Below, in pieces: positions 15,154 through 61,185 of a DNA stretch of 64,000 bases. The notes below the pieces were generated by a model. The model worked only from the letters and a program-made list of their open reading frames with translations. It was not told where the DNA came from and made no database searches. The stretch spans positions 101,334 through 165,333 of the forward strand of contig JAXLYG010000005.1 of NCBI GenBank assembly GCA_046351535.1, read 5' to 3'. Numbering within the stretch: the first letter of the stretch is position 1; every line of letters begins with the position of its first letter. This DNA is from Polyangiales bacterium. GTDB lineage: Bacteria; Myxococcota_A; Polyangia; Polyangiales; Ga0077539. The position numbers and the translations under genes are program-made.

Positions 15154-16761
15154 TCACGCTTCGCTGTCCGAGTGTTCAGTGTTCGGGTGCACCGTCGGAG
15201 GCTGGAACCCGAGCTTCACCGAGAGCGACTCGACGGTGCTCCGCAGCTCCGCGTCGTCGGGGAGGAGCTTCTCGATCCTTCGCACGGCGGACATCACGGT
15301 GGTGTGGTCCTTTCCGCCGAACTTCGCGCCGATCTGGGGGAACGACGTGCCGAGGTGGACGCGCGCGAGGAACATCGCGACCTGGCGCGCGATGGCGACC
15401 TCGCGGTGCCGGTCCTTGCCCGTGAGCTCCGACTGCTTGATGCGGTAGTGCTCGCAGACGGCGCGCTGCACGTCGTCGACGGTCACCACGGCGGGCCTCG
15501 CCCCGATGCGCAGGGTGTCCCTCACCATCGCCGTGTCGATGGAGGGGCGGCCCGAGATGTTGGCCTTGATGGCCAGCTTCATGAGCATGCCTTCGAGCTC
15601 GCGGACGCTGGTGTTCGCGGCGCCTGCGATGGCGAAGGCGGCGTCGTCGTCGAGGCGGACGTTCTCCTGCTCGGCCTTCTTCCGCAGGATCGCGACGCGG
15701 GTCTCGACCTCGGGGGTGTAGACCTCGGCGACGAGGCCCGAGCCGAAGCGCGACACGAGGCGCTCGGCCATGCCCTGGAGCTTCTGCGGGAGCACGTCGC
15801 TCGTGAGCACGATGGCGGCCTCGCGCTGGTAGAGCGCGTTGAACGTGTGGAAGAACTCCTCCTGCGTGCCCTCCTTCCCCGCGAGGAACTGCACGTCGTC
15901 GATGAGGAGCGCGTCGCACTGGTTGCGGTAGCGCGCGCGGAACTCGTCCATCTTCCGCTGCTGGATGGCCGCCACGTACTCGTTGGTGAAGGTCTCGGCG
16001 GAGACGTACACGATCCGCGCGTCGGGCTTCTGCTCGAGGATCTTGTGCCCCACGGCGTTGGAGAGGTGCGTCTTGCCGAGGCCCGTTCCGCCGCAGAGGA
16101 AGAGCACGTTGACCCGTCGGCCCGAGAGGTTCGAGAGGGCGAGGGCCATCGCGTGCGCGACCTGATTCGAAGGCCCGATCACGAACTGGTCGAAGGTGTA
16201 CTTGGGCGACAGGCCCGCGGAGAACGATCCCACCGCCGCACCCACGGAGGCTCCCACGGGGGCGGTGGCCGTGCGGGCCGCGGAGGGCTGTGAGGGCGCG
16301 TTGCGCGGGGCCACGGGGCGCTGCGACGGCTGCTGCGGGATCTGCGCGCTCTGGGTCTGCTGCGGCGGGTTCGGGAGCGTCGGCGCGACGATGCGTCCGA
16401 CGGGCTTCGGCGGAGACTTCGGCGCGGGCGAGAGCTTCGGCAGCGCGGCCATCGACACGACGCTCGCGGCCCAGTGCAGAGACCAGGGCTCGCCCGTCAC
16501 GATGCGGAGCTGCTCCTCGATGGCCGCGGTGTAGGCCTTCGAGACCCACTCGCGCGAGAAGTCGTTCGCGGCGCGGAGGAGGAGCACGCCCCCCGCGGCG
16601 TCGAGGGCCTCGATCGGTCGCAGGAGCTTGTCGATCATCTGCGCGCCGACCTTGCCCGAGAGGGAGGCGATCACCTTCTGCCAGAGCTCGTTCGCGTCGG
16701 GGTTCACGGGGGAAGATCTTTCGTCGCGTCGGCGCCCTTCCACAGGGTTATCCACAGGCAT
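15154..16761 (-). CDS. dnaA: chromosomal replication initiator protein DnaA
   Basis: 535 aa. N-terminus ELWQKVIASLSGKV, a Pro/Gln-rich linker, AAA+ Walker A (LFLCGGTGLGKTHL), sensor and box VII motifs, and C-terminal DNA-binding domain IV (KDRHREVAIARQVAMFLAR...GGKDHTTVMSA). Confidence 0.95.
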   Translation of the reverse strand: MPVDNPVEGRRRDERSSPVNPDANELWQKVIASLSGKVGAQMIDKLLRPIEALDAAGGVLLLRAANDFSREWVSKAYTAAIEEQLRIVTGEPWSLHWAASVVSMAALPKLSPAPKSPPKPVGRIVAPTLPNPPQQTQSAQIPQQPSQRPVAPRNAPSQPSAARTATAPVGASVGAAVGSFSAGLSPKYTFDQFVIGPSNQVAHAMALALSNLSGRRVNVLFLCGGTGLGKTHLSNAVGHKILEQKPDARIVYVSAETFTNEYVAAIQQRKMDEFRARYRNQCDALLIDDVQFLAGKEGTQEEFFHTFNALYQREAAIVLTSDVLPQKLQGMAERLVSRFGSGLVAEVYTPEVETRVAILRKKAEQENVRLDDDAAFAIAGAANTSVRELEGMLMKLAIKANISGRPSIDTAMVRDTLRIGARPAVVTVDDVQRAVCEHYRIKQSELTGKDRHREVAIARQVAMFLARVHLGTSFPQIGAKFGGKDHTTVMSAVRRIEKLLPDDAELRSTVESLSVKLGFQPPTVHPNTEHSDSEA

Positions 16762-28833: not shown

Positions 28834-28907
28834 GGAGGTGCGGATGGGATTTGAACCCACGTATCACGGTTTTGCAAACCGTTGCCTGGCCACTTGGCTA
28901 CCGCACC
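28834..28907 (-). tRNA. tRNA-Cys (anticodon GCA)
   Basis: Reverse complement is GGTGCGGTAGCCAAGTGGCCAGGCAACGGTTTGCAAAACCGTGATACGTGGGTTCAAATCCCATCCGCACCT. Anticodon stem-loop ACGGT-TTGCAAA-ACCGT, T-loop TTCAAAT, CC encoded. Confidence 0.85.
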
Positions 28908-56137: not shown

Positions 56138-58459
56138 ATGAAGCGGTTGACTCTCGCAGGCCTGCTCGCAGTGAGCGGGTCCCTCGCGGCCTGTGGCGAT
56201 TCCACTGGTAACACCCCCGCGGACGCCGCGGTCCCCACGGACACCGTGATGCCCACGGACACCGTGACGCCGATGGACACCACGCCTTCCGACGTGGCCA
56301 CCGACAACGCGCCCACGGACCGTCCCGGCGACGTCGCCGCCGACCGCGCCGACGCGGGGCCCACCTGCGGACGCCTGTCGTACACGACCGTCGCGCGCAT
56401 GGGCGCCACGACCACCGTCCGCGGCGACAACACCCAGGCCTGGATGGACCAGACCATGGGCCGCCCCACGGGCGCTCCGCCGGTCCGCCCCCCGTCGGGT
56501 AGCACCACCTGCGTCGCGATGTCGGGTCAGCTCGCGTACTCGTACACCATCGGCTCGACCGCTTCGGCCCTGCGCATCTCGACCACCAACGCAGGCACCC
56601 CGCGCAACTTCGACACGGTGCTCTACGTCACCACGCGCTGCGCCAACACCCTCACGGCCGCGGCCTGCAACGACGACGACCCCGAGTACGCCTCGCGCCC
56701 CGACCGCCGCGTCTCGTCGCTCGTGACCACCGAGGTGCTCCCCGCGGGCACGCAGGTGTTCATCCTCGTCGGCGGGTTCTACCCGCCGGGCGACGGCACC
56801 ACGACGATCGACCATGGCATGTTCGAGATGACCATCAACGAGCTGCCCGCGGTGGCCGACGGCGGCGCCTGCGACGCCAACGGCCTCGCGAACCGCTGCG
56901 ACACCAACCTCGTCTGCGTGGCCGACACCATCGGCGGCGACGCCGGTCACTGCCGCGCGCGCGGCAGCGTCGCGGGCGCCCTCTGCCGCACCAGCGAGCC
57001 GCGCTGCGACACGGGCCTCACCTGCTCGTCGACGGCCACCACCGGCGTGTGCATCGCCACGGGCATGGCCGACGGACCCTGCAACCCCCGCACGGCCTGC
57101 CCCGACGGGTACGTCTGCGCGGCCACCACGCTCGGCATCGCGTCGGGCACCTGCCGCCGCACGGGCACCGTGCTCGGCTCGGCCTGCCGCCCCGTGGGCG
57201 CCACGGGCGGACGCTGCGACGCGCCCCTCATCTGCGCGGCCGACATCGACCCCTCGCGCGCGGCCAACTGCGTCCGCGCCGCCGTCGCCGGGATGGAGTG
57301 CGACACGATCCGCTCGATCTGCCCGACGGGCACCACCTGCGTGACGCCCAACGGCGCCACCGCGATCGGCACCTGCACGGCCGACGGCGCCGGCCCCCGC
57401 GCCCGCTGCCGCGCCTCGGGAACCCGCTGCGACATGGGCCTCGAGTGCATCACCCTCGGTGAAGGCACCGCCGCGGAGGAGCTCTGCCTCCGCCGCTCGA
57501 CGACCAACATGGCCTGCGGCCCGGCGCTCCAGTGCCCCGACGCCGACACCTGCTACCTCACCGACCTCACCGACCGCTCCAACGGCCTCTGCGGCGCGAC
57601 GGGCGCGGCGGGCGGCGCGTGCAACACCGCGATGCCCTTCTGCTCGGGCTCGCTCGTGTGCAGCAGCGACACCGGCAACGGCCTCTGCGGCACCGTCAGC
57701 ACCATGATGGGCGCGGCCTGTGACCGCCTCCACTCGCGCTGCGGCACGGGCCTCTCGTGCGTGCTCGCCGCGGGCAGCCAGACGATGGGCACCTGCCAGC
57801 CCGACGGCTCCGTCGCCGGCGCTGACTGCCGCACGGGCGACATGCCCTGCGCCACGGGCCTCACCTGCAACGGCTCCGCCCTCAGCGGCGGCGTGTGCCA
57901 GCGCGCGGTCACCGCGGGCATGGCCTGCGACCCGATCAACGGCACCACGGCGTGCCCCGCGATGCAGTACTGCCTCGCGTCGGCCTTCAACGCCGGCACC
58001 TGCTCGGGCACCACGACCCCCGAGATGGAGCCCAACGACGCCCCGACGAACGTGATGGCCCGCGCGATCACGACCCCGTCGCTCATCACCGGCGCCCTCG
58101 GCCGCCTCGACGTCGACTGCGTGGCGGTCACCGTGCCCGCCATGGGCCGCATCGTCGCGATGGTCTCCGACGGCAACGGCCGCTGCCGCGTCAACATCGG
58201 CGGACGCCTCGCCATGGACGTGTACAGCCCCGACGGCACCACGATCCGCGGCATCGCCACGCAGAACGGTCCCTTCGGCTCGGGCTCGTGCGCCCACGTC
58301 GACGGCGGCCGCGCGATCCAGTCGTACGCGGGCGGCCTCGCGGCCGGCACGTACTACGTCTGCATCCGCGGCGTGAACGACACGTCGGTCAACCCGCCGG
58401 TCACCACCGACGCGGTCACGAGCTACGTGCTCAGCGTCTCGCCCCTCGCCGCTCCCTGA
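56138..58459 (+). CDS. secreted lipoprotein with about 11 Myxococcus-type cysteine-rich repeats flanked by PPC-like domains
   Basis: Ribosome-binding site GGAGG, then ATG 56138, lipobox SLAACG. Eleven C-x(4-7)-C-x(3-5)-C-x(6-14)-C modules. The C-terminal domain begins EPNDAPTNV, compare the bacterial pre-peptidase C-terminal (PPC) domain. Confidence 0.65.
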   Translation: MKRLTLAGLLAVSGSLAACGDSTGNTPADAAVPTDTVMPTDTVTPMDTTPSDVATDNAPTDRPGDVAADRADAGPTCGRLSYTTVARMGATTTVRGDNTQAWMDQTMGRPTGAPPVRPPSGSTTCVAMSGQLAYSYTIGSTASALRISTTNAGTPRNFDTVLYVTTRCANTLTAAACNDDDPEYASRPDRRVSSLVTTEVLPAGTQVFILVGGFYPPGDGTTTIDHGMFEMTINELPAVADGGACDANGLANRCDTNLVCVADTIGGDAGHCRARGSVAGALCRTSEPRCDTGLTCSSTATTGVCIATGMADGPCNPRTACPDGYVCAATTLGIASGTCRRTGTVLGSACRPVGATGGRCDAPLICAADIDPSRAANCVRAAVAGMECDTIRSICPTGTTCVTPNGATAIGTCTADGAGPRARCRASGTRCDMGLECITLGEGTAAEELCLRRSTTNMACGPALQCPDADTCYLTDLTDRSNGLCGATGAAGGACNTAMPFCSGSLVCSSDTGNGLCGTVSTMMGAACDRLHSRCGTGLSCVLAAGSQTMGTCQPDGSVAGADCRTGDMPCATGLTCNGSALSGGVCQRAVTAGMACDPINGTTACPAMQYCLASAFNAGTCSGTTTPEMEPNDAPTNVMARAITTPSLITGALGRLDVDCVAVTVPAMGRIVAMVSDGNGRCRVNIGGRLAMDVYSPDGTTIRGIATQNGPFGSGSCAHVDGGRAIQSYAGGLAAGTYYVCIRGVNDTSVNPPVTTDAVTSYVLSVSPLAAP

Positions 58460-58503: not shown

Positions 58504-59430
58504 GTGGCACCGCTGAATCGCCTCTCTCCCCTCTCCCTCACACTCATCGCGCTCGCCATCGCGGGCTGCGGCACCTCCTCGTCGACGCCCGACGCGGCGG
58601 TCGACGCGGGCCGGGATGCGCCCGCCGACGTCGCCGAGGACAGCACACCCGACGACGACGTGCCGCCGTGCTCGGTGCGCCCCGACGCTTCGAACGTCGC
58701 GTGCGTGCTGCGCGTGCGAGGTCGCGCGGTCGACGCGACGGGCGCGGCCCTCGGCAACACGGTGGTCACGTACTGCAGCACGACCTGCTACGCGACGACC
58801 TCCGACGCGGCGGGAGAGTTCACCGTCCCCGTCGGAGACTTCATCGACACGTCGGTCTACTCGCTGCTCGTGCACGGGAGGCCCGATCACGCGAGCGTGT
58901 ATGTGCGCTCGCCCGCGGCGGTCGACGGGGTCGTCACGATGCCCGCGCCGGTGGCGGTTCCCCGCTACGCCGACATGGGCCCGCTGCTCCCGATGGGCAG
59001 CGCGGGGGGGACCTTCACCGCGGGCGACGTGACCCTCACGGTCTCACCGGGAACAACGCTGGAGTTCGACCTCGAAGACGCGCTCCTCGGCGAGCTCGGG
59101 CGGCGGTTCCGCGTGACCTACGTCCCGATGGCGCAGGCGCCCGCGTTCGCGCGCGAGGCCAACCTCACGGCGCTGTGGGCGCTCGGTCCGTTCAACCTCC
59201 TCGCCGATCACCCCGTCGCGGTGCGCGTCGCGAATCGCGCGGGCCTCGCCGCGGGCAGCGCCGTCGAGTTCGTCGCGCTCGGGCAGGACATCCTCAGCGT
59301 GCCGCCCACCGCGGGTCACCCCATCGTCGTCGCGAGGGGACACGTCTCCGCCGACGGAATGTCTGCCACCACCGACCCCGGAACAGGCATCTCCTACGTG
59401 ACCTGGATCGGCATCCGTCCCCTGAGGTGA
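58504..59430 (+). CDS. hypothetical lipoprotein with a carboxypeptidase-regulatory-like (transthyretin-like) domain
   Basis: Lipobox ALAIAGCG. VRGRAVDATGAALGNTVVTY resembles CarboxypepD_reg. Confidence 0.5.
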   Translation: MAPLNRLSPLSLTLIALAIAGCGTSSSTPDAAVDAGRDAPADVAEDSTPDDDVPPCSVRPDASNVACVLRVRGRAVDATGAALGNTVVTYCSTTCYATTSDAAGEFTVPVGDFIDTSVYSLLVHGRPDHASVYVRSPAAVDGVVTMPAPVAVPRYADMGPLLPMGSAGGTFTAGDVTLTVSPGTTLEFDLEDALLGELGRRFRVTYVPMAQAPAFAREANLTALWALGPFNLLADHPVAVRVANRAGLAAGSAVEFVALGQDILSVPPTAGHPIVVARGHVSADGMSATTDPGTGISYVTWIGIRPLR

Positions 59431-59438
59431 ACCCTTCG

Positions 59439-60348
59439 ATGCGAACCCGTCTGACCCTCGCGCTCACGCTCGCGCTCGCCGCGTGCGATGACGCCACCAC
59501 CGCGCCTCCGGTGACCGCCGACGCGGCGCCCGACGTCACCGCCGACGCGGTGAGCGACGTCGCCCGCGACACCTCCGTCGACGACGCCCTCGCCGACCTC
59601 GTGACCCCCGTCGATCGCAGCGCACCCGACGTGCGCGACGTGACCGTGGCCGACGTCACCCCGCGCGATGTCACCGCGAGCGACGTGACCGCCAGCGATG
59701 TGACCGCCAGCGACGTCACCGCGACGGATGTCACCGCGACGGACGTCACCGCGCGTGACGTGTCCGCGACGGATGTCATGGCGACCGACGCGCCCGTCGC
59801 GGTCGGTCCGTACCCCGCGGGGCCCTATGGAAACCGCGAGGGAGACATCCTCGCGAACCTCTCGTGGGAGGGCTACCAGAACCTCGACGGACGCGCGGTC
59901 TCGACCACGCTCCCCTACGGCCCGATGACGCTCCAGACGGTGCGCGAGACGGGGCGCCACTACGCCCTCGTGCACCTCTCGGAGTTCTATTGACCCGGCT
60001 GTCAGCACGCGGCCCGTGATCTGGCCGTGCAAGGACCGATGGTGCTCGCTGCGGGCGGTGCGGTGGTCGAGATCCTCGAGTCGACGGCGCTGTCCTTCAC
60101 GCCGCGCGCGAACCTCGACGCGTGGATCAACACGTACCGCCTCCCGGTGACGGCCGTGATCGACCCCCCCCGCCGAGCGCGTGACCCGCACGCTGATGAC
60201 CTACGGGATCCGCGAGAGCCTCTTCGTCGTCGACCTGCGCACCATGCAGATCGTCAACAAGTTCAACGGCTCCGTGGCGGGCGTCGGCGACTCGTCGATC
60301 ACCATGGGCATCGCGCGCGTGCTCGAACTCCTCCGCAGCGGGATGTGA
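59439..60348 (+). CDS. thioredoxin-fold (TlpA/redoxin-like) lipoprotein; in-frame TGA at the catalytic Cys position (candidate selenocysteine, Y-U-P-G-C) plus a C8 homopolymer frameshift; alternatively a pseudogene
   Basis: ATG 59439 with lipobox LALAAC, and DVTASDV repeats. ...ALVHLSEFY-[TGA 59991-59993]-PGCQHAARDL... continues in the same frame. After the C8 run at 60164-60171, a +1 shift gives ...VIDPPAERVTRTLMTYGIRESLFVVDLRTMQIVNKFNGSV..., which is the redoxin C-terminal ygv.g.PttflID..G.I pattern. Stop at 60346-60348. Confidence 0.45.
59630..59790. repeat. 15-nt tandem repeats encoding a DVTA(S/T) linker
   Basis: gacgtgaccgccagc-type units repeated about 9 times. Confidence 0.6.
60008..60029 (+). 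other. hairpin 15 nt downstream of the in-frame TGA (SECIS-like candidate)
   Basis: CGCGGCC-cgtgatct-GGCCGTG: a 7-bp stem with one G.U pair and an 8-nt loop containing GU. Confidence 0.25.
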
Positions 60349-60363
60349 TAGTCGTCGCGTCCG

Positions 60364-61185
60364 ATGAACCTCTCTCGCGAGGACCTCGACGAGGTCTCAC
60401 ACACGCTCCTCGACATCGCGCGTGAGGCGGCGGCGCTGCTCCGCGCGGGGTGGCACACGGGCGTCGAGGTCGAGCACAAGGGCTCCATCGACCTCGTGAC
60501 GAAATATGACCGGGCCTCCGAGGCCCTGCTCGTGGCGCGCTTTCGCGAGCGGCTCCCGCGCTTCGACGTCGTGGCCGAGGAGCGCGGCGGCGCGCCTTCG
60601 GGCGAGCGTCCGGTGCTCTGGGCCGACCCCCTCGACGGAACCACCAACTTCGCGCACGGCCACCCCTTCTACTGCGTCTCGATCGGTCTGCTCGACGGCC
60701 CGACGCCCCTCGCCGCCGCCGTGGTGGCCCCCTCGCTCGACGCCGAGTACCGCGCGGCGAAGGGAAGCGGCGCGTGGCGCAACGGCCGACGGTGCCAGGT
60801 CACGCGCACCGCGACGCTCGCCGAGTCGCTCCTCGCGACGGGCTTTCCGTACGACGCGCACACCGACGCCGAGAACAACCTCCGAGAGTTCTGCGCGCTC
60901 ACGCGCCGCACCCGCGGCGTCCGTCGCTGCGGCTCCGCGGCGCTCGACCTGTGCCTCACGGCCGATGGGTCCTTCGACGCGTACTGGGAGCGCAAGCTCA
61001 AGCCATGGGACGTCGCCGCGGGCGCCCTCATGGTGCTCGAAGCGGGCGGGCGCCTGAGCGACCTCGACGGCGCCCCTGTCGACGTGCGCGCGGGGCAGCT
61101 CATGGCGAGCAACGGACCGCTCCACGAGCCGCTCCTCGCGGCGATCCGCGCGGCGCGAGAGGCCGCGCCGCCCGTGATGTGGTGA
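60364..61185 (+). CDS. inositol monophosphatase family protein (SuhB/ImpA-like)
   Basis: WADPLDGTTNFAHG metal-binding motif, plus WDVAAGALMVLEAGG in the C-terminal region. Confidence 0.8.
   Translation: MNLSREDLDEVSHTLLDIAREAAALLRAGWHTGVEVEHKGSIDLVTKYDRASEALLVARFRERLPRFDVVAEERGGAPSGERPVLWADPLDGTTNFAHGHPFYCVSIGLLDGPTPLAAAVVAPSLDAEYRAAKGSGAWRNGRRCQVTRTATLAESLLATGFPYDAHTDAENNLREFCALTRRTRGVRRCGSAALDLCLTADGSFDAYWERKLKPWDVAAGALMVLEAGGRLSDLDGAPVDVRAGQLMASNGPLHEPLLAAIRAAREAAPPVMW

Follow-up and report, generated by a model that had tools for sequence, protein, structure and literature searches.

The in-frame TGA codon at position 59991 of the window (the whole analyzed stretch of DNA, 64 kb in length) is predicted, with strong support from comparative sequence analysis, to encode the active-site selenocysteine (Sec) of a redox enzyme that has a thioredoxin fold and is anchored in the membrane. 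The gene is probably intact and would encode an exported, lipid-anchored oxidoreductase of a TlpA/ResA/DsbE-Prx-like type with the redox motif U-P-G-C, the eighth C of a downstream C tract most likely being an assembly error. The database entries examined cover at least 60 protein clusters as well as 25 species-representative genomes; all of them show the gene divided into two "hypothetical proteins", and recognition of the Sec codon would repair the annotation of the whole family.

Gene organization and the C tract

The gene and its upstream neighbor are located on the plus strand of the window and have the following features.

58504..59430, plus strand: upstream partner gene encoding a 308-aa lipoprotein; it ends 9 nt before the start codon of the selenoprotein gene
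59439..60348, plus strand: whole gene, 302 aa with TGA translated as Sec (residue 185) and the C8 run shortened by one C
59439..59486, plus strand: signal peptide and lipobox MRTRLTLALTLALAAC (read by eye)
59487..59801, plus strand: low-complexity linker rich in Asp, Val, Thr and Ala, with 15-nt (5-aa) tandem repeats at approximately 59633-59790
59802..59990, plus strand: N-terminal half of the thioredoxin-fold domain (VGPYPAGPYG...LVHLSEFY), conserved in 25 loci
59991..59993, plus strand: TGA, proposed Sec codon (residue 185); TGA in 26 of 26 aligned genes
59991..60002, plus strand: redox motif U-P-G-C, at the N-terminus of the first long helix in the model of a Cys homolog
60008..60029, plus strand: SECIS-like hairpin with stem 60008-60014 / 60023-60029 and loop 60015-60022, CGUGAUCU
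60164..60171, plus strand: run of eight C, one too many for the reading frame
60172..60348, plus strand: C-terminal portion of the domain, read in the shifted frame as AERVTRTLMTYGIRESLFVVDLRT...LLRSGM, with the stop codon TGA at 60346-60348

The initial annotation had described a lipoprotein gene that starts at 59439, meets a TGA at 59991-59993 and continues in frame as PGCQHAARDL, together with a 7-bp hairpin 15 nt past this TGA and a C8 run at 60164-60171 that breaks the frame, whereas 7 C would restore a redoxin C-terminus. All of these elements were observed as described. The start codon is ATG 59439, and the lipobox L-A-A-C is located at the end of the signal peptide with its Cys at codon 16, which by eye fits the bacterial lipoprotein pattern of a signal peptide ending in [LVI][ASTVI][GAS]C. 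After processing, Cys16 would form the N-terminus of the mature protein and carry the lipid anchor. A lipobox-like Cys is also found near the N-terminus of most full-length homologs and N-terminal fragments. The repeat units of the linker are DVTAS/DVTAT (59633-59790). An extra 15-nt unit is present in the window at 59685-59699, and two assemblies that are ~99% identical to it (L041 and L042) are one unit shorter; linker length thus varies within the population, since repeat copy number differs between assemblies as similar as these.

The TGA at 59991-59993 directly follows ...RHYALVHLSEFY (...HYALVHLSEFY). With seven C at 60164, the frame continues through AERVTRTLMTYGIRESLF...LLRSGM and terminates at TGA 60346-60348. 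The genetic code is not reassigned, because TGA also serves as the ordinary stop codon of the same gene at 60346. Orthologs read through both the TGA site and the C-run site. The 58 codons that follow the C8 run, as well as the stop codon, are intact, and the C-terminal 58 residues differ at only three positions from those of P0001, the protein of the closest species, which is 94% identical to the query over the whole 102-aa match.

Among the homopolymers of the 64 kb, the C8 tract is the longest, and of the 25 runs of six or more nucleotides it is the only one that coincides with a frame break. Using the protein cluster that contains the window's own N-terminal fragment, we reached three independent assemblies of the same region (L040, L041 and L042). 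The comparison assemblies are Logan DRR545331 (99.3% identity, 4.6 kb), DRR046817 (99.2%, 6.3 kb; an activated-sludge run assembled with MEGAHIT at ENA) and Logan DRR235451 (98.7%, 1.7 kb). All three read GAC CCC CCC GCC, which is seven C, in frame. The extra C is the sole indel between the window and L040 (Logan DRR545331) in 4,558 aligned nt. The closest other species (L001 and L029-L034, ~93-95% identical) read GAT CCC CCC GCC, thus having a C6 tract, and in others the tract is interrupted (CCG CCC). A single-base indel unrelated to the tract was observed in L030 (CAXXZZ010000013.1, a 1.36-Mb contig of another MAG of this group), which, compared with the window as well as with L029, has one extra base opposite window position 57180. 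This base splits a conserved 773-aa lipoprotein gene into two calls and is probably an assembly error in CAXXZZ010000013.1, which indicates that single-base assembly errors occur in this group.

These comparisons suggest that the eighth C at 60164-60171 is very likely a homopolymer error of the assembly, as the initial annotation had proposed, a private recent mutation being possible. Evolved phase variation, the other option raised there, is unlikely given the lack of conservation of the tract, which is C7 in near-identical assemblies and C6 or interrupted elsewhere. The strongest alternative to our interpretation of the gene accepts the selenoprotein in this species and takes the extra C as real in the strain, where either a recent inactivating frameshift or a slipped-strand on/off switch would make this copy non-functional. 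C8 is indeed what the assembly shows, homopolymers are prone to slippage, and the T-to-C change that lengthens C6 to C7 is specific to the population of the window. We nevertheless consider this scenario improbable, given C7 in three independent assemblies at 98.7-99.3% identity, a downstream reading frame intact to its stop codon and only three residues away from P0001, and the state of the tract in other species, which speaks against a conserved contingency tract; the indel in L030 shows that assembly errors of this type do occur in the group.

Conservation of the TGA codon and its cysteine counterparts

By aligning the N-terminal domain, we located 25 related loci in species-representative genomes, all of which are Myxococcota / Polyangiales-type MAGs. 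The loci extend down to 39% tblastn identity in this domain. The codon at the Sec column is TGA in all 26 aligned genes (the 25 loci and the window); TAA, TAG or a Cys codon was found in none. PGC comes directly after the TGA in 22 of the 25 loci, and the remaining three have GGC, GNC or AAC, so that x-x-Cys is retained throughout; ~110 conserved codons then lead to a common C-terminus. The dN/dS ratio (Nei-Gojobori) is ~0.16 for the closest pair before the frameshift site, the estimates for distant pairs being noisy and partly saturated.

A protein search with the repaired domain retrieved the close relatives as fragments of two kinds: N-terminal ones that end in ...SEF[YFL], and C-terminal ones that start slightly downstream and read IDPPAERVTRTL without a frameshift. 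The single full-length homolog among the close relatives in this search, P0010, reads HVSEFYCPGCQHAAKQL. We further scanned 1.84 billion cluster representatives with HMMER using P0010 as a query and obtained 399 matches. All 60 N-terminal fragments fetched from these matches stop one residue short of Cys179 of P0010, and CxxC occupies the Sec column in ~35 of the 40 longer matches fetched. The TGA column therefore aligns with Cys179 of P0010 and with the first Cys of CxxC in ~35 other full-length homologs, which is the position that the initial annotation had assigned to it; orthologs carry TGA there (25 of 25) and full-length homologs carry Cys. In the six genes of the Cys form examined at the DNA level, the codon is TGT or TGC. 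Both Cys179 and Cys182 (P0010 numbering) are almost invariant. Four full-length homologs (P0038, P0053, P0059 and P0060) have lost both motif Cys (e.g., DTVDVGSQ and SQSPGSQ) and are probably redox-inactive derivatives.

The presence of TGA in the Sec forms and of Cys in the homologs therefore constitutes the standard Sec/Cys-pair signature of a selenoprotein family. Two features by which selenoproteins are recognized are observed here, namely the Sec/Cys pair itself and TGA-containing orthologs in other genomes with coding conservation past the TGA.

Several genomes contain more than one family member. In L019, a second paralog (15387-15857) is located ~5 kb downstream of the first one; it has an in-frame TGA at 15573 (..VHVSGFT-U-GGC), an open frame past this TGA and a local hairpin. 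A search of the G+C-rich DNA for further in-frame TGAs flanked by high-GC3 segments gave noisy results, with this paralog as its only yield. In L035, the Cys-form paralogs P0010 and P0031 are arranged in tandem (524-1405 and 1430-2224) behind one copy of the partner gene. The MAG GCA_052035985.1 possesses a Sec form (L001/L029) as well as the Cys paralog P0058 (FYCGGC, L039 3001-3747), whose gene adjoins genes for a rhodanese and a pyridine-nucleotide disulfide oxidoreductase.

The downstream hairpin and the proposed decoding of the TGA

The hairpin in the window begins 15 nt past the TGA and consists of a 7-bp stem, CGCGGCC/GGCCGUG, which includes one G-U pair, and an 8-nt loop. Its minimum free energy (MFE) is -12.9 kcal/mol, and 21% of 34-nt windows across the 64 kb fold equally well or better. 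The support for the hairpin is thus comparative, since its folding energy alone is ordinary in DNA with a G+C content of 71%. According to the published model of bacterial SECIS elements (bSECIS), the loop comprises 3-9 nt, the stem comprises 4-16 bp, a G is located in the first two loop positions, the distance from UGA to the loop is 16-37 nt, and the MFE is -7.5 kcal/mol or lower (PMC13188914, Fig. 2). The window hairpin agrees with this model in all constraints (loop of 8 nt, stem of 7 bp, spacing of 21 nt, MFE of -12.9 kcal/mol). No Rfam family matched the region around the hairpin, either at the gathering threshold or at E<=10.

Each of the 26 Sec forms has a hairpin at the corresponding position, with energies from -8.4 to -16.1 kcal/mol and at least five different stem sequences. 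Most Sec genes have the stem CGCGGCC/GGCCGCG; L019 has CGGGGCC/GGCCUCG; L015, L017 and L018 share CCGCCC-AGGUCUU-GGGCGG; and other stem solutions are found in L023, L024 and L025. In the ungapped codon alignment, 90.7% of the helix cells are paired, compared with 30-44% in slid registers. Compensatory changes occur at three pairs, and the observed measures were reached by just 1-4 of 500 shuffles. One loop position, 28 nt away from the U of UGA, is G in every gene. Synonymous sites within the hairpin are frozen on rare codons (Ala+7 GCC in 26 of 26 genes, Arg+8 CGT in 19 of 21 and Asp+9 GAT in 14 of 19), whereas at Ala+23 four codons are used about evenly. In all six Cys forms the SECIS-type hairpin is absent: the equivalent place folds at -4.9 to -9.3 kcal/mol into no common shape. 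The idea that a SECIS element follows the TGA is thus supported by the fit to the bacterial model and by conservation with covariation, and the selenoprotein reading put forward in the initial annotation gains from this hairpin in addition to the TGA in every fetched ortholog and the Cys at this column in full-length homologs.

Two further explanations of the TGA were considered. It is very unlikely that the codon is a genuine stop, giving rise to a lipoprotein N-fragment and a separately initiated C-fragment, or that it is read through by a standard tRNA in a selenium-free manner. Gene callers annotate the same split in all databases. However, the segment PGCxxAARDLAAQG between the TGA and the called downstream starts is conserved and includes the second motif Cys; the called starts differ in position and codon; and the split is predicted to cut one compact thioredoxin fold at its active site. 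The co-occurrence of TGA with a hairpin of the SECIS type, which Cys forms lack, argues against both termination and selenium-free readthrough. The least probable reading, and one that we reject, is the doubly disrupted and decaying pseudogene also offered in the initial annotation, with the TGA as a nonsense mutation and C8 as a frameshift: there are indeed two apparent disruptions within 180 nt and no Sec machinery in the window, but a nonsense mutation would not recur as TGA at the same column in 25 species and in 60 of 60 fragments, the downstream coding sequence, the motif and the C-terminus are conserved, and the frameshift is absent from every other assembly, near-identical ones having C7. 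This gene is an example of how a working copy can be mistaken for a pseudogene in decay when a Sec codon is combined with a single homopolymer error.

If the TGA encodes Sec, as we favor, the UGA at 59991 would be recoded by SelB together with Sec-tRNA(Sec), recruited via the hairpin 15 nt downstream. Searches with E. coli SelA, SelB and SelD gave no tblastn match for selA, selB or selD in the 64-kb window and in 25-26 loci of ~20 kb, and ARAGORN detected no tRNA-Sec in the window and 25 loci. The sole RNA genes detected in the window are tRNA-Ala(CGC) at 1632-1706 and tRNA-Cys(GCA) at 28834-28907 (minus strand). In view of the conserved TGA, hairpin and downstream coding sequence in dozens of species, the host is predicted to possess the Sec machinery. 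Use of Sec has been documented in another myxobacterium, Anaeromyxobacter dehalogenans (PMC1794560).

Protein fold, partner gene and relation to known systems

The window protein scores below every Pfam and NCBIfam threshold; its score with AhpC-TSA (PF00578) is 17.7 bits against a cut-off of 26. PF00578 matches only 21 of 40 Cys-form relatives at E<=0.01, and it does not match P0010. The structure of P0010 was modelled with AlphaFold. The model built on 40 family members has a pLDDT of ~97 over residues 113-293, as well as over the region equivalent to 59802..59990; a single-sequence run gave a pLDDT of 35. In this model, Cys179 (the Sec column) directly precedes the first long helix (180-198). 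Foldseek ranked ResA of B. subtilis at the top, with a target-normalized TM score of 0.74-0.78, CcmG and AhpC being close behind, and the best PDB sequence match of the family profile is also ResA (E 0.003). Like TlpA, ResA and DsbE, the family has a thioredoxin fold with an N-terminal extension and a central insertion, and the C-x-x-C expected at the N-terminus of helix 1 in these proteins is represented by U-P-G-C in the window. The fold ranking and the ResA profile match support, at the level of a model, assignment to the TlpA/ResA/DsbE and Prx-like branch of thioredoxin folds. The TlpA/redoxin fold named in the initial annotation is thus backed by a confident model that matches ResA, DsbE and PrxQ-type folds. 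The cis-Pro loop motif of ResA is PTTF; at the level of sequence correspondence, the family has R-E-S/T-x-F-V-V-D where P-T-x-F of this loop is expected.

The comparison of folds does not separate a disulfide reductase from a peroxidase. The peroxidatic signature of peroxiredoxins is P-x-x-x-T/S-x-x-C. It is absent from the window protein, which reads V-H-L-S-E-F-Y-U and lacks both the Pro at -7 and the Thr/Ser at -3. The role of a thiol-disulfide oxidoreductase appears somewhat more probable than that of a peroxidase, because the family has C/U-x-x-C preceded by an aromatic residue and lacks PxxxT/SxxC; R-E-S/T at the expected place of the cis-Pro loop tempers this preference. After translation, the protein would be exported and, as its lipobox suggests, acylated at Cys16. 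Outside the cytoplasm, the Sec-Cys pair would cycle between the selenol/thiol and selenenylsulfide states, with Sec as the attacking residue of U-P-G-C. The most likely activity, with a presumed direction of electron flow, would be to reduce or isomerize disulfides of one dedicated substrate, and thiol-peroxidase activity may be considered as the second possibility.

The lipoprotein gene located directly upstream encodes four conserved Cys (including C-x-x-x-C) and an HGRPxH motif, and its only Pfam match is a weak one to CarboxypepD_reg. By tblastn, it was found directly upstream in 19 of the 25 loci, of which 18 were aligned, down to ~36% identity, and it also precedes three Cys-form genes. 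It can be speculated that this co-conserved, Cys-containing lipoprotein is the best candidate for a substrate or partner of the enzyme, since the two-gene module is kept whether the enzyme uses Sec or Cys. The conserved partner thus provides a concrete and testable substrate hypothesis. Synteny of the downstream inositol-monophosphatase gene and of the 773-aa lipoprotein gene upstream is limited to closer relatives. In the NCBI numbering, a single accession (MFO0644749.1) separates the N-terminal fragment MFO0644748.1 from the phosphatase MFO0644750.1; given this one-accession gap, it seems that the pipeline placed an ORF call on the rest of the gene (60027-60425).

The window gene works like the known thioredoxin-fold UxxC selenoproteins and belongs to that kind. 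Judging by profile scores, it appears to represent a distinct family outside the current Pfam and NCBIfam models. The family appears to be specific to Polyangiales-type Myxococcota. We tentatively propose that this is an uncatalogued selenoprotein family restricted to Myxococcota (Polyangiales-type), comprising lipid-anchored extracytoplasmic Sec-x-x-Cys oxidoreductases that form a two-gene module with a Cys-containing beta-sandwich lipoprotein and interchange Sec and Cys between species and paralogs. The literature searched mentions neither this family nor selenoproteins in Myxococcota or myxobacteria. The proposed family would add an exported, lipid-anchored enzyme to the selenoprotein catalogue, from a lineage not discussed for selenium use in that literature, and it would imply that myxobacteria from soil and sludge, which are largely aerobic, invest selenium in a redox function of the cell envelope.

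Thioredoxin-fold UxxC selenoproteins known from computational surveys include those named 'Prx-like thiol:disulfide oxidoreductase', 'Redoxin family', TlpA-like and DsbA-like (PMC13188914, Table 1), the Prx-like and Redoxin family members being common in the former Deltaproteobacteria (PMC13188914; PMC1794560). The window family shares with the latter two the thioredoxin fold, the UxxC motif and prediction from Sec/Cys pairs together with a bSECIS element. However, these families are defined by PF00578 or PF08534, and the window protein, which scores below the PF00578 cut-off, is set apart by that definition. From ResA, TlpA and CcmG (DsbE), the window family differs in having Sec in place of the first Cys, a sequence identity of only 14-16%, its own N-terminal YPxGPYG segment and a lipid anchor instead of a transmembrane helix; no cytochrome c maturation genes are linked to it in the loci examined. 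R-E-S/T, where the cis-Pro loop of TlpA-like proteins is expected, may be a further difference. Unlike the BCP/PrxQ and AhpC peroxiredoxins, including Sec-containing Prx, it lacks the PxxxT/SxxC signature, and its second Cys is three residues away from the first position, as in CxxC redoxins. Finally, a thioredoxin in the form of a surface lipoprotein is known from pneumococcus (Etrx2, PDB 4hqz); the Etrx proteins use Cys, are found in Gram-positive bacteria and have MsrAB as their partner, whereas the partner in the window is an unrelated, beta-sandwich-like lipoprotein.
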